DNA of 50,597 bases from Shigella phage S2_02. The translations under genes were made by a program, and so were the position numbers. The stretch lies in the sequence record OQ223306. The stretch is one strand, 5' to 3'. Shown here one piece after another: positions 1-50,597 of the stretch. Numbering within the stretch: the first letter of the stretch is position 1; every line of letters begins with the position of its first letter. Below the pieces are notes generated by a model. That model was not told the origin of the DNA. It saw nothing but the letters and a program-made list of their open reading frames with translations, and made no database searches.

Positions 1-127
1 GGGGGGGGAATTGGTGTTACCCAGTTCACCTGGTAGTCATCTCCATTTTTAGCAAAAAGTGCTATCCATTACGATTACGCTTGATTGTGTGTTAATCCAT
101 GTATATGATTTGCCTAAATCGCAATCG
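1..127. repeat. Terminal direct repeat copy 1 (identical to 50471-50597); probable circular-assembly overlap
   Basis: Bases 1-127 (starting with a G8 run) are repeated exactly at the window end; 127 bp is a typical assembler k-mer overlap. Confidence 0.9.
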
Positions 128-342
128 TAGACAAAATTACACCAAATTACGACTTATAATATACATATAGATATATGTATATATATAATATATAAGTGTT
201 TTTTTTATTTATATATATAGATACTATTATTTGTAATATGGCTGTATAGCGTGTCTACTATGTTAATCGTTGGATGCTCTGGTTATGATATTCATGTTTA
301 TATATACAGTAGTTTTATCGGCTCATATTTATATGGGAAAAG

Positions 343-369
343 CGATTAACACGATTAACACGATTAACC
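343..369. repeat. 3 x 9-bp tandem repeat CGATTAACA in early control region
   Basis: cgattaaca cgattaaca cgattaacc read directly; upstream of first rightward gene. Confidence 0.8.
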
Positions 370-29330: not shown

Positions 29331-30292
29331 TACATGTTCGGAGTGAAAGGAATTGGCATTGAAATGTTTATATTGAAGGGGAATCGCGCTCCGCTTTGGG
29401 TGGAATAATTACCTACTCTTGTTCCTGGGGCGCTTCTAACGTTACCGCCGCTCATGCAAACGCCCTTGTATCGAATGTTATTATATCCACCTGTAACTCT
29501 GCATATCGTACCTGTTCTCAGTATTGGGAAAAATCCACCGCACCACTGCCAACCATCATTTATCGCCATAGTCCCGCCAAGAACGAAGGGGCGTCTAACG
29601 CTTGAGAAAACGATCTGGCCAGCAGGGTTACTCATAGTTATTCCCGGCCCAGGAGGTGGTGGGGTGTTATTAAATATTACGAGTTGAACGTATACGCTCG
29701 CGCCAACGTCATCAATCCCGTTATAGTTTGCATCCCTGCACCATATTGTATTGCCGTCAGATTCAAGTGTTACGTTTGGATTATCCCACATACCGAAAGG
29801 AACGCCCTGTACTGGCAACTGAGCCTGACCGTTAACCTGAATCCCCCCAACAAATGCAGCGCTCATCAATCTGGCGTTATTCGGTATCGCTGCGAAGTTC
29901 GTTGAATCGTTAACAAGTACCCCCTGATTTCCAGCTTGAGCGGGGAGGATTTCGTAGCAGTTTCCATAAAATCTCATCCTCCTTCCACCGTGCCCGTTAA
30001 AATTACCTACCGTTATTCGTCCGGTTGAATCATTGACCTTCTGAAAACTAGTCAAATAATACACCTCCGGGATGTAATCCATATCGTCTATGTAGATAGC
30101 CTGAGATGGAAGGCAAAAAGCGGTAGATCCTGGACTCATTTGCAGACCAAAATCAAAAACCGATCCAGATGAATCAACTCCGTCAGCCTGTATAGGTCCA
30201 CACCATGACGGGGCGCGAAGCCCTGAAGTTATCTCCATTGCCGGGCGACCGTCGTTTAGGTTTATATATATTCCTTGCCCCATAATTACCAC
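29327..30292 (-). CDS. hypothetical protein co-transcribed with cor-like gene; possible receptor-recognition / tail-fibre-associated protein (321 aa)
   Basis: ORF track; Gly/Asn/Ser-rich with PPPPGPG linker; start overlaps stop of cor-like gene; product assignment speculative. Confidence 0.45.
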   Translation of the reverse strand: MVIMGQGIYINLNDGRPAMEITSGLRAPSWCGPIQADGVDSSGSVFDFGLQMSPGSTAFCLPSQAIYIDDMDYIPEVYYLTSFQKVNDSTGRITVGNFNGHGGRRMRFYGNCYEILPAQAGNQGVLVNDSTNFAAIPNNARLMSAAFVGGIQVNGQAQLPVQGVPFGMWDNPNVTLESDGNTIWCRDANYNGIDDVGASVYVQLVIFNNTPPPPGPGITMSNPAGQIVFSSVRRPFVLGGTMAINDGWQWCGGFFPILRTGTICRVTGGYNNIRYKGVCMSGGNVRSAPGTRVGNYSTQSGARFPFNINISMPIPFTPNMY

Positions 30293-30516
30293 TCTTTAGT
30301 TTTGATTGACACTTTGCCGCTAAAGTTGCCCTGATCGTCGTCGGATGACAGACCTTTGAATCGCATATCAATTTCGCCAGCAGGAACCTTTTGACCATCA
30401 ACGAATCGCATCATGCAAGAACCGTATGCGTAAGTAACGCAGTCGCCATTTTTAAGATTCTGAGCACAACCAGTCAGGATGAATGCCGCAGCAATAATGG
30501 TGATTAACTTTTTCAT
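30286..30516 (-). CDS. cor: Cor-like outer-membrane lipoprotein (superinfection exclusion candidate) (76 aa)
   Basis: ORF track; signal peptide with lipobox LTGC; size and position next to tail-fibre genes as in T1/phi80-type phages (from memory). Confidence 0.55.
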   Translation of the reverse strand: MKKLITIIAAAFILTGCAQNLKNGDCVTYAYGSCMMRFVDGQKVPAGEIDMRFKGLSSDDDQGNFSGKVSIKTKEW

Positions 30517-30545
30517 TCGTGTGTCCTCGTCGTTAGTGTGATTGC

Positions 30546-30574
30546 ATTGTATGTCGCATTTACTTTTATTGCAA
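30546..30574 (-). promoter_or_regulatory. Putative sigma70 promoter for cor operon (TTGCAA-17-TACAAT on minus strand)
   Basis: Minus-strand -35 at 30569-30574 and -10 at 30546-30551, 17-bp spacer; SD GAGGA before cor ATG. Confidence 0.5.
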
Positions 30575-30595
30575 TAGCACGATTACAATTTTTTA

Positions 30596-30950
30596 GTGTA
30601 ACAGGTGTCTATTTTTGTAACCGGAACGGGTGTTACAAAATCCACCACATCCGATCGCAGAGGGATATGATAAAAACTCTATATAATATATATAGATAGA
30701 TAATATTTAATTTTAGCTTTATATATATAATTATTGCTGTGTAACAGTTGTCTATCGTGTAACAGGTGATTTTATTGATTCGTCAAATTTCTATCATATA
30801 TGTTCAAAATTTAATCAATATTGATTCTATTCATGGATATCTGTGTATTTCTAAGAAAATGCTGTTACAAGTATTACACAATAGACACCACATAAAAACA
30901 GCTCTAAGCTATTGATTACGTTGACACTGGTTGTAACTTGAGCGATATAG
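30596..30950. repeat. Array of GTGTAACAG / GTGTCTAT motifs (direct and inverted) with AT-rich tracts in divergent control region
   Basis: Copies read at about 30596-30613, 30616-30637 (palindrome TGTAACC...GTGTTACA), 30736-30768, 30861-30889 (inverted), 30930-30950. Confidence 0.6.
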
Positions 30951-30983
30951 ACACGCAATTACACACCAATTACATGTATTCGA

Positions 30984-31011
30984 TTGACTAAACTCTGTTA
31001 ATGGCTATAAT
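30984..31011 (+). promoter_or_regulatory. Putative strong sigma70 promoter for exonuclease operon (TTGACT-16-TATAAT)
   Basis: TTGACT 30984-30989, TATAAT 31006-31011; about 30 nt upstream of ATG 31043. Confidence 0.6.
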
Positions 31012-31042
31012 GGATTCATCGTAAACGAGGGAGATAAACGAA

Positions 31043-32107
31043 ATGTTCCAGGTATTCACATCAAGTCAGCTTTCTAATGACGAGTATCATAGCAACGAAG
31101 GTTGGGCGGCAGAGTATGTAAGCGGTTCGAGCCTTGCAGAAATTTATCAGACTTGCCCGGCTAACTGGCGATTCAAGAAGAACGAGACTACTAAAGCGCT
31201 GGAGTTCGGCACTCAGTCGCACACTAACTTTGAGAGTCGAGATCTGTTTACTGCAACGTATGCGCGTTGTCCTGCTCCGTCAGAGTTTAAAGATCTTATT
31301 ACTTCGCAAACGGCACTGGCAGCAAAATTAAAATCTTTTGGCCTGAAAGGTACATCCGGTAAGCAGTACCCTGACCTCATCAAAATGATGGTTGATTGCG
31401 GTGAAGATCTCAATGTTCAATATCTTATTGAACTGATTGCTGAAGCTGAGGCGCGCGCTGAAGGAAAGCAACTGGTTGACGCTGATAAATATGATGCCTG
31501 CATGAAGATGAGGGCCATTCTTGAGCAAAACCCAGATCATGAATCGTGCATCAATAGCGAAACTGCGCAGCGTGAGATCTCAATTTTCGGTGAGATATCC
31601 GGCGTCAAGGTTAAGGTTCGACTTGACCATTTGGACTACAAAGAGAATGTACCAGGTCGTGTACTGACTGGTTATGATGAGAATGGTGATCCGGTATTTG
31701 AAGACGTAATTTTCCCGGAAGCACTGATTATCACAGATTTCAAAACTACGATGAGCGCCAACCCGTTAGAGTTCCCGAGACTGGCATACAATCACGGCTA
31801 TTACCTGAAGATGGCATTGCAGCATGACCTGCTACGTCGCGCAATCCAGGCTGGCGCTTTTGAAGGAAACTTCCCGGAAGATATTCCGATCGTAGTTCGA
31901 TTGCTTGCGCAGGAGAAAAAAGAGCCTTATATCGCACTGGCTTACCGTATGACTATGGAGCAAATCAGGATCGGTCGTAACCAGTACATTAGCGTAGTCC
32001 ACACTTACAAGGCTTGCTCTGAAATGGATGTTTGGCCTGGGTACGCTGGCGACGCAAGCGAGATCGAACTTGAAACGCCATCATGGGTGCGTTACCAAAA
32101 TAAGTAA
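31043..32107 (+). CDS. putative recombination exonuclease (PD-(D/E)XK-type) (354 aa)
   Basis: ORF track; motif region IITDFKTT...YNHGYYLKMALQ resembles D..E.K nuclease core; adjacent to Erf and SSB. Confidence 0.55.
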   Translation: MFQVFTSSQLSNDEYHSNEGWAAEYVSGSSLAEIYQTCPANWRFKKNETTKALEFGTQSHTNFESRDLFTATYARCPAPSEFKDLITSQTALAAKLKSFGLKGTSGKQYPDLIKMMVDCGEDLNVQYLIELIAEAEARAEGKQLVDADKYDACMKMRAILEQNPDHESCINSETAQREISIFGEISGVKVKVRLDHLDYKENVPGRVLTGYDENGDPVFEDVIFPEALIITDFKTTMSANPLEFPRLAYNHGYYLKMALQHDLLRRAIQAGAFEGNFPEDIPIVVRLLAQEKKEPYIALAYRMTMEQIRIGRNQYISVVHTYKACSEMDVWPGYAGDASEIELETPSWVRYQNK

Positions 32108-35182: not shown

Positions 35183-35204
35183 AAAAAACCGCCCGAAGGC
35201 GGTT
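35183..35204 (-). terminator. Rho-independent terminator after primase gene (minus strand)
   Basis: AACCGCC-cgaa-GGCGGTT preceded on plus strand by A6 (U-run on minus transcript). Confidence 0.6.
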
Positions 35205-36138
35205 AGAGTAGGTCACTTGCTGAGAATAATTTGGCTTGCATTCCTGAGCGGTATCCTCCAGGATTCGGGATGATTATTTTTAATTGTCTGTCGTCTGCCA
35301 TGTATAAAGTTTCTTTATCAGATGGTTCGCACGCAACCCTTACCTCCCGCTCTCCCTTGTATCTGTACGCAACCATTTCTAGGTTTTCAGGAGTGAAGCA
35401 GGCCCACACTTCCTGTTTTGTGTGAAAGGCTATGTGCTGAGCGTCAATCCAGTTTAGACACAAGTAGATCGCCTTCTCAGTTTTACCAGTCACGGCAACC
35501 GAGCAACTTGTGTATTTCTTAGCGTAAAATGACTCCCTTCCTTCCTCGTCAATAATCAAAATATTGCAAAACTCGTCATCAAGCCCGTCCTCATGCACAA
35601 GTTGACACGGGATAGTGTGAAATACGCTCTCCCCGCCATCGTCGCGACGTTTTACGCCAACGTCGAATGATTCAGTAGGTAGCGACTCAAACATGCTTAG
35701 TGGTGTGTTTACGCGCTTCTCTGTGCGCTCCATGACTTTCATCACCGCTTCATGATCTGCCATCATGACATTGACGCCAGCTACCGGAGTCCGGCGCGCT
35801 TTCTTGTTCGCCTTGACGATATATTCCTGCGGAACTTTTCCGAGAAATCTCCCCAGGATGTTTATACATTCACTGTACGGCATACCAGTTAATTTCATTA
35901 GCCACCCGATCCCGGAGTCGTTCCCGCATGAGTTGCAGATCGCGCCGCCGTCGCCCGGAGTGTTTAAGTTATCGGTCCATCGAAAGCGGTCTTTACCGCC
36001 GCAGTTTGGGCAAGGTTGGTGCTTCTTATTAAACACCTCATTCTGCAACCCGCAGATTGATTGGAAAGCCTCGCGCCATAACCCCTTCATGTACGGCAAA
36101 ACGTCCTCTTTCTGAAACATCATAAATTCTTCGTTCAC
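35203..36138 (-). CDS. putative DNA primase (N-terminal zinc-binding domain) (311 aa)
   Basis: ORF track (GTG start with SD GGAGAT); CPNCGG...CNSCG zinc-finger-like motifs typical of phage primases. Confidence 0.6.
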   Translation of the reverse strand: MNEEFMMFQKEDVLPYMKGLWREAFQSICGLQNEVFNKKHQPCPNCGGKDRFRWTDNLNTPGDGGAICNSCGNDSGIGWLMKLTGMPYSECINILGRFLGKVPQEYIVKANKKARRTPVAGVNVMMADHEAVMKVMERTEKRVNTPLSMFESLPTESFDVGVKRRDDGGESVFHTIPCQLVHEDGLDDEFCNILIIDEEGRESFYAKKYTSCSVAVTGKTEKAIYLCLNWIDAQHIAFHTKQEVWACFTPENLEMVAYRYKGEREVRVACEPSDKETLYMADDRQLKIIIPNPGGYRSGMQAKLFSASDLL

Positions 36139-36150
36139 TTCCAGATCTCC

Positions 36151-36217
36151 AAAATAAAAAACGCGTAGAAGGATGTTAACCCGCTACGCGTCGTTTGTTT
36201 TAACTAAAAATGCTATT
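36151..36217 (-). promoter_or_regulatory. Minus-strand module: box + 18 bp + TAACAT overlapping hairpin/T-run terminator, upstream of primase
   Basis: Box (revcomp AATAGCATTTTTAGTTAAAAC) 36197-36217 contains stop of upstream gene; -10-like at 36173-36178; hairpin ACGCGTAG/CTACGCGT 36161-36191 then U-run. Confidence 0.45.
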
Positions 36218-36652
36218 GGTCGTTCCGATATCTTCCTTCTTCACGACGCGCATAAATTTCTTGTTCTTGCATCTCTTCTCTAGGCACTTGCCGTTACCGT
36301 CAAACTTGAGGTCGAATCGCAACCATGCGGCGCGGAATCCTTTACAACCCTGACGACGGTAAGCACGATGTGCAGCTTCAGCACCTTGCCACGAAATCAT
36401 GTTGCGCTCCTTCCATCCCTGCACGGTCTGATTGCTAACTTTCAGAGCCTTTGCGCAAGCCGCCGGACCACCATAATATTCAATAAGAGCATCCAATCGC
36501 GCTCTCAGTCCTGCGCGCGTTTCTTCTTTATGGATATAAAATCCGCAGCGCTGGCGAGGCTTTTTATCTTTACCGCGTCGTGTTCCGTTGTTACCATTGA
36601 TGTGACGTTTATCGATTTCACCAGTAGACTCTGCGATACGTTTCATATTCAT
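36200..36652 (-). CDS. putative helix-turn-helix DNA-binding protein (150 aa); candidate regulator
   Basis: ORF-track frame 36200..36724; ATG 36652 has SD AGGAG; basic N-terminus and HTH-like segment PAACAKALKVSNQTVQGWKER; function unverified. Confidence 0.5.
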   Translation of the reverse strand: MNMKRIAESTGEIDKRHINGNNGTRRGKDKKPRQRCGFYIHKEETRAGLRARLDALIEYYGGPAACAKALKVSNQTVQGWKERNMISWQGAEAAHRAYRRQGCKGFRAAWLRFDLKFDGNGKCLEKRCKNKKFMRVVKKEDIGTTNSIFS

Positions 36653-36663
36653 CTTAATTCTCC

Positions 36664-36732
36664 TGTAGCACTTTTTGCTAAAAACGTTTACTGTATGCCG
36701 TGTATTATATCGTAAACGATACAACGATTCAA
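36664..36732. promoter_or_regulatory. Overlapping divergent promoters: box + 18 bp + TATTAT (plus, helicase) and TTGAAT-17-TATAAT (minus, HTH gene)
   Basis: Box 36664-36684; plus -10 at 36703-36708; minus -35 at 36727-36732 and -10 at 36704-36709; box lies in 5' UTR of the minus transcript. Confidence 0.45.
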
Positions 36733-41527: not shown

Positions 41528-42679
41528 ATGTCACAAGCTAAAATCACCACCGAGCAACTTATTGAAGAGCGCATGAGCGGCCTAACACTTCGCGAAATCG
41601 CGGAAAAATACGGTATGCACATTCGCACTGTTGAAGCGCGACATGCCAAGCTGGCAAAAGAAGGTCATTTTCACGGTAACGAGCATGTTGCTAAAAACGT
41701 GCCCGAGGGATTCATGGTAAAAGGCACGTCGACGATGATTCGCGGCGATGGGACCGAGGTAGTGCGCTGGGTAAAAACCGATCAGGACCGTGAGAAGATT
41801 GCGGCAATGATGGAAGCAGCGCGTATTGCATTCTGTGAAGACCTGCCGAGAGCGAAGCCAACCGAGCTACTAACCTCGCAAGGGCTTACGACAGCGATGG
41901 GTAAGCTGGCACTCTATCCGGTATTCGATCTTCATATTGGCGCGCTTGCTCACAAGCATGAATGCGGAGAGAACTACTCTACCGACGTAGCTGAAAAAGT
42001 GCTTGGCGACTTCTTCAATTACGCGATCGATATTGCCCCGAACGCAGAGAAAGCTGTTCTGTTAATCGGCGGTGACTTCCTTCACTCGGACGGTCTTGAT
42101 GCTGTTACCCCGGCAAGCGGTCACGTTCTGGATCAGGATTCACGATATGCAAAATTGGTGCATGTGGCTATTCGATCGGTGCGTCGCGCTATCGACAAAA
42201 TGCTACTGAAGCACAAAGAAGTCGAAGTCCAGGTTATCGAAGGGAACCACGACCAGGCCGGGATGATTTGGCTACGCGCTGCAATGGCTGCATACTATGA
42301 AGACGAGCCGCGAGTATTCGTTGACGTCAGTCCTATGATTCTGCATAAGACTCGCTGGGGAAATACCTTACTGGGATACACTCACGGTCACACGATGAAA
42401 AAGGCAGACACGCGACTTGCAGCGATGGCGGCAGACTTCCGCGCAGACTTTGGAGAAAGCAAATACGTGTATACTCACAGTGGGCACTGGCATCATCAGA
42501 CAATCACTGAACACTCACTCGGTATTGATGAAGTTCACGGTCAGCTTGGGGCGAAAGACGCATATGCGGCGCGCGGCGGGTGGCGCTCATATCGCCAGGC
42601 GGCGGTAATCATTTACGATAAGCAGTTTGGTGAAATCGGTCGATTCATCTATCGTCCAGAAATGACAGGATCGCACTAA
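41528..42679 (+). CDS. calcineurin-like metallophosphoesterase with N-terminal HTH-like domain (383 aa)
   Basis: ORF track; motifs DLHIG, GGDFLHSDG, GNHD, GHTM, HSGHWHH; N-terminal LTLREIAEKYGMHIRTV HTH-like segment. Confidence 0.65.
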   Translation: MSQAKITTEQLIEERMSGLTLREIAEKYGMHIRTVEARHAKLAKEGHFHGNEHVAKNVPEGFMVKGTSTMIRGDGTEVVRWVKTDQDREKIAAMMEAARIAFCEDLPRAKPTELLTSQGLTTAMGKLALYPVFDLHIGALAHKHECGENYSTDVAEKVLGDFFNYAIDIAPNAEKAVLLIGGDFLHSDGLDAVTPASGHVLDQDSRYAKLVHVAIRSVRRAIDKMLLKHKEVEVQVIEGNHDQAGMIWLRAAMAAYYEDEPRVFVDVSPMILHKTRWGNTLLGYTHGHTMKKADTRLAAMAADFRADFGESKYVYTHSGHWHHQTITEHSLGIDEVHGQLGAKDAYAARGGWRSYRQAAVIIYDKQFGEIGRFIYRPEMTGSH

Positions 42680-44675: not shown

Positions 44676-46244
44676 TTAACCCATCAGTCTAGGATTGATG
44701 AAAACAATATCATCAATGCGGCAAGTGTAGTTCATCTCTTCGAGCGTGATCAGCAGGCTATCGATTCGCTCAGATACTTTCTGTTGACCGCTGAACGGCG
44801 TAACGTTCCGGCACTTTGCAACAATGCTATGAATAGGTGCGCGGCCTTTGTTCTTCTTCGCGATCTCAGTGATAACATCAATCAGCTTACGAGATTCAGC
44901 CTCATCACCAGCATACCCGGCAGCGCTGGCAGACGACAGATAAGTCCTGGAAAGCTCATTGAAAATCATGATCGCTTCCTGCATTGTTTCAAGGTCAATC
45001 TCACGGTTGGCCCGGTTCGGTGATTCACCCTCCCAATTCTTGATCGTGTGGAGAACTGAAGCAATACGCAGGGCGTGCTTATCGAACTTACCGAGATGAC
45101 CGCGTAGCATTGAGTGAGAGTATTTTCCCCCTGCGGCGAAATCCGGTTCCATCGCCTGACGCGCAAGGTTTAATTCACGCATAGCATTACGGCTCACAGA
45201 TAGAACAACGTTATCCTCTTTCATGATGTTGTGGACGAGTCGATAGTATTTGCTAACCAATCCGCGATCGACTTCCTTATACAGTGCATCACCATTTTCA
45301 TCGCAAAGAATACGAGTACCTAAAAGCGGTTCCTCGCGAACCAATAGGAAACGCTCAGATACACCGATACCGCGCTGGCCTGCGTCCATGATACCCTTGA
45401 TTGTTTCATCCTGCGCAATGACGCAGATCGAACCGACCGGGCAAAGAGATAAGTTGTTGTCCTGATTTGAACGCGCGACCTCCATATGGTTTTTATCCCA
45501 CGCCTTAAGGATAAGCTCGCTGTTTGATTTCTTATCAGAACCGCCATAGGTCAGTCCCAGCAATGTATTTATTGCTGTTGCCTCATCAGAGATTACGGAG
45601 AAGTGACCTTGAACAGCCGCCACCTTCGCAAGACCTTCAGGTGTAGGATCTGATACCGCGAAAACAATATCAGCCATCTTCTTGATCTTCTCTTCCAGTT
45701 TTTCTTTGTCCTCGTACAGAGCAGCCGTCGTGTTGCCTTTAGGATCGTTTTTTATTTCCTTCTCGACCTGACGTAGCTGACTGGTTAAACGGATACGTTC
45801 CTTTTTACGCTCTTCATTCAGTCGCTGAATCTCCGCACGCATAGGTGTAATCGCCGCTGAGTTAATCGCTGATTTACCTGTTGACGGTGGCTGGCTAATC
45901 ACCATATAAAGAGCGGTCGGTTGTTCTTCTCCGTGATATTGCACCCAAAACTTCCCGAGCATCGCGGCTGAGATGCACCCAATGAAATGAGCGTACGCAG
46001 ACGAAACAGGAAACTGTACAGACTCAGCCTTTGCCTTTGCATATTCGAATACCAGGTTATCGCCACCTAACGAAATCAGAGGGAACTTATCGTTTCCACT
46101 GTTGATATCGATCGGATCTTGCCAAAACGAAACTGAATCCCCATAGCTGTTTTCACGAATTGCGATCGCCACCGGATTAACTCCAGTGCTATTTGCGATC
46201 TCAATAATCTGTTGGTAATTCAGTTTTGGCTTAATATTAAACAT
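44676..46244 (-). CDS. putative P-loop ATPase, replication/recombination-associated (522 aa)
   Basis: ORF-track frame 44676..46307; ATG 46244 has SD AAGGAG; Walker-A-like PPSTGKSA. Confidence 0.6.
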   Translation of the reverse strand: MFNIKPKLNYQQIIEIANSTGVNPVAIAIRENSYGDSVSFWQDPIDINSGNDKFPLISLGGDNLVFEYAKAKAESVQFPVSSAYAHFIGCISAAMLGKFWVQYHGEEQPTALYMVISQPPSTGKSAINSAAITPMRAEIQRLNEERKKERIRLTSQLRQVEKEIKNDPKGNTTAALYEDKEKLEEKIKKMADIVFAVSDPTPEGLAKVAAVQGHFSVISDEATAINTLLGLTYGGSDKKSNSELILKAWDKNHMEVARSNQDNNLSLCPVGSICVIAQDETIKGIMDAGQRGIGVSERFLLVREEPLLGTRILCDENGDALYKEVDRGLVSKYYRLVHNIMKEDNVVLSVSRNAMRELNLARQAMEPDFAAGGKYSHSMLRGHLGKFDKHALRIASVLHTIKNWEGESPNRANREIDLETMQEAIMIFNELSRTYLSSASAAGYAGDEAESRKLIDVITEIAKKNKGRAPIHSIVAKCRNVTPFSGQQKVSERIDSLLITLEEMNYTCRIDDIVFINPRLMG

Positions 46245-50114: not shown

Positions 50115-50249
50115 TTATCGCTTACCCTGACCGTTGCAGGCCGGACACGTAATTCTCTGCATCATCCAGACTCCAGAGACTTCAGTGAATAACGGAACCA
50201 TAGTAAATCCACGACCAGCACACTGACTACAAATCTGTTTAACTCTCAT
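50115..50249 (-). CDS. small zinc-ribbon-like protein (44 aa)
   Basis: ATG with SD AGAGGAAG; two CxxC pairs (CSQC ... CPAC); below ORF-track cutoff. Confidence 0.4.
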   Translation of the reverse strand: MRVKQICSQCAGRGFTMVPLFTEVSGVWMMQRITCPACNGQGKR

Positions 50250-50283
50250 TTTTGCTTCCTCTTCTGATTGGTTGATGTGATGA

Positions 50284-50329
50284 ATCATACCCTGCCAACA
50301 TAGCTAAGTCGTTAGCAAAAAATGCTATT
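50284..50329 (-). promoter_or_regulatory. Leftward early promoter module (box + 19 bp + TATGAT), first of leftward early region
   Basis: Box (revcomp AATAGCATTTTTTGCTAACGA) 50309-50329; minus-strand -10 at 50284-50289; CATCA start-like motif. Confidence 0.45.
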
Positions 50330-50470
50330 CCAATAATTGCTCATTATTCCATCAATAGTGGAATATGTGGAATAATTTTGATTGTGATTGATTGCGAATG
50401 ATGAAACGTGATTATTGCATGGTGCGCAACAGTTGGTTGATTTGTTGCTGAGAATGCAATGATTGTGAGA
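50330..50470. repeat. Repeat-rich non-coding control region (TGGAAT/ATTCCA and GATTG repeats) ending in G8
   Basis: Short direct and inverted repeats read directly; continues across the assembly junction into 1-445. Confidence 0.5.
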
Positions 50471-50597
50471 GGGGGGGGAATTGGTGTTACCCAGTTCACC
50501 TGGTAGTCATCTCCATTTTTAGCAAAAAGTGCTATCCATTACGATTACGCTTGATTGTGTGTTAATCCATGTATATGATTTGCCTAAATCGCAATCG
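50471..50597. repeat. Terminal direct repeat copy 2 (identical to 1-127)
   Basis: Exact match to window start; repeat may continue beyond window end. Confidence 0.9.

Follow-up and report, generated by a model that had tools for sequence, protein, structure and literature searches.

Short repeats around DNA predicted to melt most easily form a two-copy element conserved across the phage T1 family

Two loci in the genome of a T1-like phage carry copies of what appears to be one and the same element, in which arrays of short repeats are set around the DNA predicted to melt most easily, and this two-copy element is conserved across the phage T1 family. We consider it about an even chance (a probability of roughly 0.5) that the two elements are the replication origins of the phage, of the type that combines iterons with a DNA-unwinding element, and that they are entwined with the divergent early promoters. 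The 50,597-base window, by which we mean the whole stretch of DNA analysed, is a complete genome of a T1-like siphovirus (Tunavirus, Drexlerviridae) with Shigella phage Shfl1 and other Tunavirus members as nearest relatives (91-98% identity over the region of interest); as bases 1-128 are repeated at 50470-50597, the unique genome amounts to approximately 50,469 bp. The 2024 re-annotation of phage TLS found no origin-like repeats in T1-like phages and stated that the origin is unknown, and its authors, who had sought lambda-like repeats in the helicase gene and elsewhere, reported none (PMC11447400). Given that this work reports no such repeats, the prediction of two origins appears to be new. 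Our literature search for an origin or a transcript map in the T1 family returned nothing beyond that paper, the 2004 T1 genome paper being outside its coverage.

The first of the two loci to be considered is the 526-bp gap at 30517-31042, with a lipoprotein gene on one side and exonuclease VIII on the other, in agreement with the preliminary description of this DNA, which had placed a gap of this length between the cor and the exonuclease operons. The genes and predicted promoters that frame it are the following.

30286-30516, minus strand: lipoprotein gene (Pfam Phage_lipoprotein), annotated as Cor in T1
30546-30574, minus strand: sigma-70-like promoter of the cor-like lipoprotein operon, TTGCAA-17-TACAAT, 9/12 matches
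30984-31011, plus strand: strong sigma-70-like promoter of the exonuclease VIII-Erf-SSB operon, TTGACT-16-TATAAT, 11/12 matches
31043-32107, plus strand: exonuclease VIII, first gene of the exonuclease VIII-Erf-SSB operon

The divergent promoters that had been proposed to flank the gap are thus present as predicted sites on both sides, and both are unchanged in 13 tunaviruses apart from two variable spacer columns in the TTGACT-16-TATAAT site, although the number of promoter-like sites in the gap region shows no excess over shuffled sequence. An Rfam scan of the gap gave zero matches up to E = 1, and direct reading finds one GATC only.

At least five copies of motifs resembling TGTAACAG and GTGTCTAT, in direct and inverted orientation, had been claimed for the gap, together with a call for their enrichment to be measured against shuffled controls. 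The array is indeed far above chance: KTGTAAC occurs seven times in 342 bp of the gap, for which a mean of 0.28 is expected, and none of 2000 dinucleotide shuffles of the gap sequence itself reached seven, while a scan statistic of seven matches in 350 bp was reached by none of 20000 random placements. All four exact copies of TGTAACAG in the window fall within 30597-30869 (1.24 expected genome-wide), and all three exact copies of GTGTCTAT fall within 30605-30954 (1.07 expected genome-wide). The genome-wide totals of both motifs are ordinary and it is their clustering that is unusual. The looser pattern KTGTAAY has 10 sites in 500 bp out of 31 genome-wide, seven of the 10 being KTGTAAC, and a 16-base composite, TGTAACAGNTGTCTAT, is present in two copies where approximately zero are expected. 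A repeat search returned a 17-nt family, GTGTAACAG[G/T]TGTCTAT, at 30596 and 30739 with a partial copy at 30757, and inverted copies too. The TGTAACAG and GTGTCTAT motifs are one family and alternate in a 9-bp phase, as GTGTAACAG-GTGTCTATT-TTTGTAACC from 30596 and as GTGTAACAG-TTGTCTATC-GTGTAACAG from 30739, GTGTCTAT (with the core TGTCTAT) being a degenerate form of GTGTAACAG that keeps this phase.

The organising feature of the arrays is a central A+T tract, a role that the preliminary description, which had noted AT-rich tracts between the motifs, did not assign to it. The exonuclease-side element is approximately 380 bp long with promoters interleaved, and it consists of the following parts.

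30596-30640: left repeat cluster, with GTGTAACAG at 30596, GTGTCTAT at 30605, TTGTAAC at 30615 and inverted GTTACAA at 30632
30663-30746: A+T tract of 84 bp with at least 85% A+T, candidate DNA-unwinding element
30739-30773, plus strand: right proximal repeats in 9-bp phase, GTGTAACAG, TTGTCTATC, GTGTAACAG, GTGATTTTA
30774-30835: nearly invariant block, with overlapping TTGATT/AATCAA palindromes at 30808-30831
30862-30888, minus strand: distal inverted repeats, in minus-strand order GTGTCTAT, GTGTAAT, TTGTAACAG, with cores kept and flanks varying
30905-30917, minus strand: match to the IHF consensus, AATCAATAGCTTA, with the WATCAA and TTR arms invariant and N4 variable in 13 genomes
30931-30975: promoter-proximal repeats, conserved, with TTGTAAC at 30931, inverted GTGTCTAT at 30947-30954, inverted GTGTAAT at 30958-30964 and inverted ATGTAAT at 30969-30975

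Across the tract the motif orientations read + + - on the left and + + - - + - - on the right, which is mixed and not cleanly symmetric. When duplex stability is calculated from nearest-neighbour energies in 100-bp windows, the tract at 30663-30746 provides the second least stable window of the genome (z = +4.8), and a paralogous tract at 133-248 provides the least stable one genome-wide (z = +5.9). The same holds in relatives: in seven genomes, namely the six complete ones (this window, T1, Sin4, mtp13, E6 and BEK6) and Chapo, no other 100-bp window is as unstable as those at the two tracts (z = 4.6-5.9), and the third least stable window reaches a z of only 2.8-3.7. Moreover, in all six complete genomes, which represent five genera, an A+T content of 85% or more is reached by exactly two 60-bp windows per genome, and these lie at the two tracts. 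Within a genome the two copies align together and in one shared orientation relative to the operon on their right, and in Sin4 approximately 140 bp are nearly identical between its two copies.

The within-genus footprint of the element was taken from an alignment of 13 tunaviruses with 90-98% identity, in which the repeat cores are invariant while the sequence between them is variable; the absence of conservation in related genomes, which the preliminary description had named as a reason to give up the motifs, is therefore not what is observed. The left cluster as a whole reads TTTTGTAAC-N10-GTTACAAAA, and its arms are invariant while the 10-bp spacer is variable. Because TGTCTAT can be replaced by TGTATAT, as in T1, and one site does not keep the final G of TGTAACAG, the constrained core is KTGTAAY. 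The approximately 100 bp to the right of the tract are almost without change, and the tract at 30663-30746 is itself near-invariant, with a 2-bp deletion in two genomes and one further variable column. This near-invariance suggests a sequence-specific constraint beyond what melting alone would demand, and it counts against the origin reading.

The second copy occupies the other divergent region, near the start of the window, and its parts are listed below.

133-248: paralogous A+T tract, between the two early arms
251-258, plus strand: GTGTCTAC, which adjoins the tract and aligns with TTGTCTAT of the exonuclease-side copy
343-369, plus strand: three tandem 9-mers, CGATTAACA, CGATTAACA, CGATTAACC
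414-445: perfect 12-nt palindrome TGTAACACTATG-N8-CATAGTGTTACA, with arms at 414-425 and 434-445

The perfect palindrome and the GTGTCTAC at 251-258 had both been pointed out before and are found as described, the latter by direct reading. In the T1 version of the palindrome the GTGTAACAC halves are retained and outer stem positions are altered without compensation, on which grounds a hairpin was rejected and protein half-sites are favoured over structure. The earlier claim that motif arrays occupy both divergent regions holds strongly for the gap but modestly for this second region, where TGTAAC occurs twice against 0.49 expected (P = 0.09) and TGTMTAT five times against 0.89 expected (P = 0.002). 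Few KTGTAAY are present in this copy (three), and its tandem 9-mer CGATTAACA differs from the repeats on the exonuclease side. As this enrichment is weak, what links the two regions is mainly the A+T tract that they have in common, with its adjoining sequence. Chapo adds to this link from another side. Its exonuclease-side copy is 92% identical to that of the window, whereas its other copy cannot be aligned with that of the window, carries the tandem 9-mers CGGTTGCAT, CGGTTGCAC and TGGTTACAA at the position of those at 343-369, and still contains six TGTAAY and three ATAGACA; a divergent allele with the same motifs supports a shared trans-acting factor at both loci.

Beyond the genus, the architecture is kept while the repeat sequence changes. 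Among 80 exonuclease VIII loci from IMG/VR, almost all of those with enough upstream sequence have a tract, which ends about 256-309 bp upstream of the gene, and the dominant flanking repeat depends on the lineage (GTTACA, GATTAC, GAAACA/AAACAG, GGACAA with up to 11 copies, or GTAAGA with up to 11 copies). The repeat is GTTACA/ATAGAC in Tunavirus, GTAATC in SRT8, which includes four tandem copies at 9-bp spacing, GATAAC in Hanrivervirus, GAACA/TGGTT in Tlsvirus and GTAAGAT, in approximately eleven copies, in Webervirus (Klebsiella phages); further lineages use GGAAACAG or GGGACAAA (approximately ten copies). In L082 two copies of GGGACAAA stand opposite two inverted copies across the tract, so that at least two repeats per side in opposed orientation are cleanly present there. 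The exonuclease-side copy of the Webervirus Sin4 comes after the primase terminator and has the full architecture although no divergent gene is present, from which it follows that the element travels with the exonuclease operon and not with the divergent promoter pair.

Taken as origins, the two elements would work as follows. The repeats to the left and right of the tract would be recognised by a sequence-specific protein that the phage itself encodes and that would open the duplex between them, and the melted tract would admit the MCM-like DUF3987 helicase of the phage (gp9 homologue) together with its primase (gp24 homologue). Since the outermost repeats abut the two divergent promoters, we propose that origin activity may be coupled to early transcription through the same repeat binding. 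One such origin would lie between the early arms (133-248) and the other approximately 300 bp upstream of the exonuclease VIII-Erf-SSB operon. In known iteron origins a repeat cluster far above chance goes together with an easily melted A+T region inside or beside the repeats, and a cluster of this kind around an A+T tract of predicted low stability is found here. Such origins also lie beside or inside the initiator gene, which is not the arrangement in this window, with gp9 at 44676-46244 and gp23 at 36200-36652 and the element at 30596-30975 and 133-445; the gp9 gene is approximately 14 kb from the exonuclease-side copy and approximately 4-6 kb from the other one. In Sin4 the element comes directly after the primase gene. 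GC and AT skew track gene orientation exactly and are therefore uninformative on the position of an origin. A DnaA-dependent, oriC-like origin was rejected, as one-mismatch matches to TTWTNCACA number 93 genome-wide against 107 expected and none are clustered in the gap.

The closest anatomical counterparts are the origins of staphylococcal pathogenicity islands (SaPIs), where a central A+T region divides 6-12 iterons such that each side has two or more, the two sides pointing in opposite directions, and where the iterons are bound by the C-terminal winged helix of the self-loading helicase Rep (PMC9371898). In both systems the iterons are short, penta- to hexanucleotides, and stand to the left and right of an A+T region, with a sequence specific to the element, and the phage encodes an MCM-like helicase with a predicted winged helix. 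They differ in that the SaPI origin lies immediately downstream of rep, whereas the helicase gene of the phage is 4-14 kb away, and in that the phage has two copies per genome and an element of approximately 380 bp that is promoter-interleaved and whose protein binding is putative; between gp9 and the solved Rep structures no sequence similarity was detectable. The presence of two copies is reminiscent of phage SPP1, whose oriL and oriR, approximately 13 kb apart, each combine direct repeats with an A+T unwinding element and are bound by gp38, and whose second origin has been proposed to trigger recombination-dependent replication through an exonuclease, an annealase and an SSB (PMC6316719). 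SPP1 is likewise a lytic pac-type siphovirus, and one of the two copies described here lies directly upstream of the exonuclease VIII-Erf-SSB operon. In contrast, SPP1 relies on a DnaB-type helicase with a loader and on a separate protein devoted to origin binding, its oriL is inside gene 38, and its repeat sequences are unrelated to those of this phage, in which no homologue of gp38 was found.

Two separated cis regions are also known from satellite phage P4, in which ori and crr carry the same short iterons and are both needed for replication. These iterons are read by the C-terminal domain of alpha, a single protein in which primase, SF3 helicase and binding functions are fused. Similarity to alpha-type primases is noted in the annotation of the T1 primase, whereas primase and SF6-like helicase are separate genes here. 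Lambda-type origins likewise pair iterons with A+T-rich DNA next to them, and lambda ori requires transcription close by (transcriptional activation). However, the lambda iterons lie inside the initiator gene O, and this phage has no homologue of O or P. Finally, the T1 family has a 21-nt intergenic box, aaATAGCACnnnTTGnTAAAA (PMC11447400), which is also a short conserved intergenic repeat of the same phages and of which copies stand at the edges of both regions (for example at 46-66 and 50304-50324 on the minus strand, with a partial one at 30575-30590). The box is oriented with transcription and lies approximately 76 nt upstream of a start codon, whereas the gap motifs have another sequence and are found, in either orientation, at two loci only, around the A+T tracts; their separation from the box family in the preliminary description is borne out.

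As the repeat changes with the lineage, even among genera that share a host, the evidence points to a phage-encoded binder. With DnaA boxes unenriched and only one IHF site, this is the economical reading of the sequence comparison, in which IHF would perhaps be accessory. Candidates for the binder are the winged helix of gp9, gp23 or another protein; the genes concerned, with that of the primase, are given below.

44676-46244, minus strand: gp9-like DUF3987 protein, candidate initiator-helicase (Pfam E = 5.6e-42, 144.7 bits against a cut-off of 27)
36200-36652, minus strand: gp23-like protein, Cro/YdaS-type helix-turn-helix, alternative candidate binder (Pfam P22_Cro at E = 4.5e-5, which does not reach the curated cut-off)
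35203-36138, minus strand: primase (gp24 homologue), zinc ribbon, primase-helicase type

The AF2 model of the gp9 homologue (pLDDT 89) predicts an AAA+ core followed at 447-516 by a C-terminal winged helix, in the arrangement helix-strand-helix-helix-hairpin, and its best fold matches are MCM2-7 subunits and archaeal MCM. By its Pfam match, its modelled fold and its predicted winged helix the protein is placed among the DUF3987, SF6 MCM-like helicases, in line with the literature (PMC4889955), and helicase activity was shown for one member of the family to which the gp9 homologue belongs (PMC11724360). The gp23 gene lies between those of the primase and an SF2 helicase and is conserved across genera. 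Sequence searches with gp9 and gp23 against solved structures gave no useful matches. Comparison of either protein with the repeats gives a mixed picture. The helix-turn-helix of gp23 is identical in IME347, which has GTAAC/GTCAC arrays, and in SRT8, which has GTAATC arrays, nor does it vary among the lineages whose repeats are GAAACA, AGAACA and AACAAC; the same helix-turn-helix with different repeats opposes gp23 as the specificity determinant, but weakly, because the compared motifs are close variants. The C-terminus of gp9 reads 'NPR' in Tunavirus, IME347 and L079, which have GTAAC-type repeats, and 'NPCF' in SRT8, but this correspondence is broken by L086 and L081, which combine 'NPR' with repeats of the TGTTAT/GAACA type.

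The preliminary description had offered a repressor operator set, a host-factor site array and an origin as explanations. The origin fits the anatomy best, a host factor finds no support as the main explanation, and operators are the main, though less probable, rival because the outermost repeats abut both promoters; for these outer repeats a role in transcription alone is as good a fit as an origin. On this alternative, the repeats would be operators or enhancers of a phage regulator, for example the Cro-like gp23, that switches the early promoters on or off, the tract would be a bendable spacer or an insulator, and replication would begin elsewhere. The arrays do lie between two predicted promoters that are invariant in the genus and come to within approximately 10-22 bp of both -35 hexamers, the palindrome at 414-445 sits where the promoter of the first early gene is expected, and some repeats of L082 overlap box-type promoter elements. 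Furthermore, gp23 offers a Cro/YdaS-type helix-turn-helix with family-wide conservation, and lineage-specific repeats would suit any phage-encoded DNA binder. Most repeats, however, are 60-400 bp from the promoters and are grouped around the tract instead of covering the -35 and -10 elements, the Sin4 copy keeps its full architecture with no divergent gene to be regulated, and the constancy of the gp23 helix-turn-helix between IME347 and SRT8 speaks weakly in the same direction, GTAAC/GTCAC and GTAATC differing little. Operators of the lambda OR/OL type are palindromes of 14-20 bp over -35 and -10 elements with an adjacent repressor gene, whereas the sites described here are mostly off the hexamers, their half-sites vary in spacing (N10 in one case, N8 with 12-nt arms in the other) and no regulator gene is adjacent. 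Operators also leave unexplained that the tract is a global minimum of duplex stability in every genome. The operator and origin readings are not mutually exclusive.

A landing pad for host proteins is improbable. On this reading nucleoid proteins such as IHF, Fis or H-NS, or else RNA polymerase, would raise or repress early promoter activity through intrinsically curved A+T DNA, with the repeats as host sites or as decoys that resemble -35 hexamers. A+T tracts are typical targets of H-NS, TAGACA and GTTACA resemble the hexamer TTGACA on direct reading, and the IHF match at 30905-30917 has conserved arms around a variable N4. Nevertheless, genera that infect E. coli differ in their repeats (GTTACA in Tunavirus, GATAAC in Hanrivervirus, GAACA/TGGTT in Tlsvirus) and the Klebsiella phages have GTAAGAT, although the host factors are nearly identical, and DnaA boxes show no enrichment. 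IHF was rejected as the explanation of the array, which has a single consensus site only. Nor is the tract placed as a promoter UP element, which would be A+T sequence at -40 to -60, since 30663-30746 is approximately 90 bp from one of the two -35 hexamers and approximately 240 bp from the other.

Still less probable is a role in packaging or recombination, as a pac-like terminase site or a RecE/Erf hot spot that is duplicated in the genome. The first copy is near the genome start, where the terminally redundant region of T1 (2.8 kb) has its left end, pac has been mapped only roughly in the T1 family (PMC11447400), and the second copy lies directly upstream of the recombination operon. Against this, T1 and TLS are known to have one pac only, with the second copy approximately 20-30 kb away, lineage-specific repeats around a melting-prone tract are unlike known pac anatomy, and no terminase gene is adjacent, that of the small subunit being approximately 8 kb from the first copy. 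That a small protein-coding gene accounts for the conservation (the 46-codon ORF CPTT1_049 in T1, a TTG-start ORF at 30775-30915 here) is hardly credible and the ORF was rejected, for although it is intact in 13/13 tunaviruses with no stops or indels and has AGGTGA just upstream, it shows many non-conservative amino-acid changes, its substitutions fall between the repeats and by inspection not at third codon positions, the ORFs at the same place in LL5 and BEK6 are dissimilar to the CPTT1_049 equivalent and to each other, other genera have no counterpart, and it extends over only some of the array, with the left cluster wholly outside it.

The origin reading invites a broader proposal, which we regard as doubtful in its full form: all Drexlerviridae would have paired paralogous origins, a self-loading DUF3987 initiator-helicase would recognise the iterons through its winged helix, and the exonuclease-side copy would act like SPP1 oriR to trigger recombination-dependent synthesis of concatemers. 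If this is true, the pair of iteron and initiator would define replicon specificity between co-infecting T1-like phages. To date, self-loading initiator-helicases have been described in staphylococcal islands and in systems of archaeal and eukaryotic type but are not known from a classic coliphage, and if the DUF3987 helicase is the binder, T1 would become a tractable E. coli model for these enzymes. Lineage-specific repeats may in addition be useful for engineering or classifying T1-like phages. T1 belongs to the seven classic T phages, and phages related to it are common both as candidates for phage therapy and as contaminants of fermentations; with a family-wide candidate that comprises two loci per genome and defined repeats, the question of where these phages begin to replicate their DNA becomes directly testable.

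In the gap on the exonuclease VIII side, the following features lie rightward of the proximal repeats, the 9-bp-phased motif copies at 30739-30773.

30774-30835, near-invariant block
30775-30915, plus strand, 46-codon ORF with a TTG start, annotated as CPTT1_049 in T1
30905-30917, minus strand, match to the IHF consensus, its arms conserved and its central N4 variable among 13 genomes

Within the near-invariant block, overlapping palindromes of the AATCAATATTGATT type are found at 30808-30831, and the words TGATTG and TTGATT are found again at 50360-50470, within the left portion of the first control region. These words and palindromes may constitute a second binding motif. The ORF is uninterrupted in all 13 tunaviruses aligned. 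Since its non-conservative changes are numerous and a homologue is absent from other genera, it is probably not a gene.

The 21-nt box, an intergenic repeat known from T1-like phages and distinct from these arrays, is found at control-region edges and also between two genes.

46-66, minus strand, box ATAGCACnnnTTGnTAAAA at a control-region edge
50304-50324, minus strand, box ATAGCACnnnTTGnTAAAA at a control-region edge
30575-30590, partial copy of the box at a control-region edge
36664-36684, plus strand, box ATAGCACnnnTTGnTAAAA in the gap between the gp23 and helicase genes

In the relative L082, the local repeat GGGACAAA and the 3' half of the box share bases.

Two further proteins encoded in the window carry stretches that resemble known domains.

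41528-42679, plus strand, 383-aa homologue of T1 gp16, annotated as 'DNA repair exonuclease'
50115-50288, minus strand, 57-aa protein, product of the gene that opens the leftward early operon

The gp16 homologue, for which zero Pfam matches were obtained, contains the N-terminal helix-turn-helix-like stretch LTLREIAEKYGMHIRTVEAR and is possibly another DNA binder. The 57-aa protein contains DnaJ-type CXXCXGXG zinc-finger repeats that score under the Pfam cut-off. In SRT8 (L269/L270, NC_042043) the ends of the linear GenBank record fall within the gp23-like gene, so that gp1, the 'transcriptional regulator' of the annotation, is called in truncated form; the full-length gp23-like protein was recovered by joining both ends of the record. 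Another record, MG065643 (L025, 'Campylobacter phage E6'), is a T1-like enterobacterial phage genome of typical Hanrivervirus type, and its Campylobacter host label is probably wrong.

Bases 1-128 of the window recur as its final 128 bases (50470-50597), leaving a unique length of approximately 50,469 bp; either the genome is circularly permuted and its assembly overlaps itself, or these bases form a short terminal repeat. A G8 run is located at 1-8 (equal to 50470-50477). The first A+T tract follows about 130 bp to its right, and the run is close to the position at which the T1 record starts, the first 2800 bases of which are annotated as terminal repeat region. The run is kept as G6-G8 in T1 and Chapo, and G- or C-rich runs are also present near the A+T tracts of Sin4, E6, and BEK6.

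Upstream of the first early gene, three tandem 9-mers, CGATTAACA, CGATTAACA, and CGATTAACC, are found at 343-369, and Chapo (L001) contains at the same position a different triplet, CGGTTGCAT, CGGTTGCAC, and TGGTTACAA. The tandem 9-mers look like a second, allele-specific repeat set. Bases 1-533 of Chapo and 1-486 of the window represent non-alignable alleles from approximately 70 bp past the G run up to the start codon, although elsewhere the two genomes share about 92% identity. The Chapo allele of the first control region amounts to mosaic replacement of regulatory or origin DNA.
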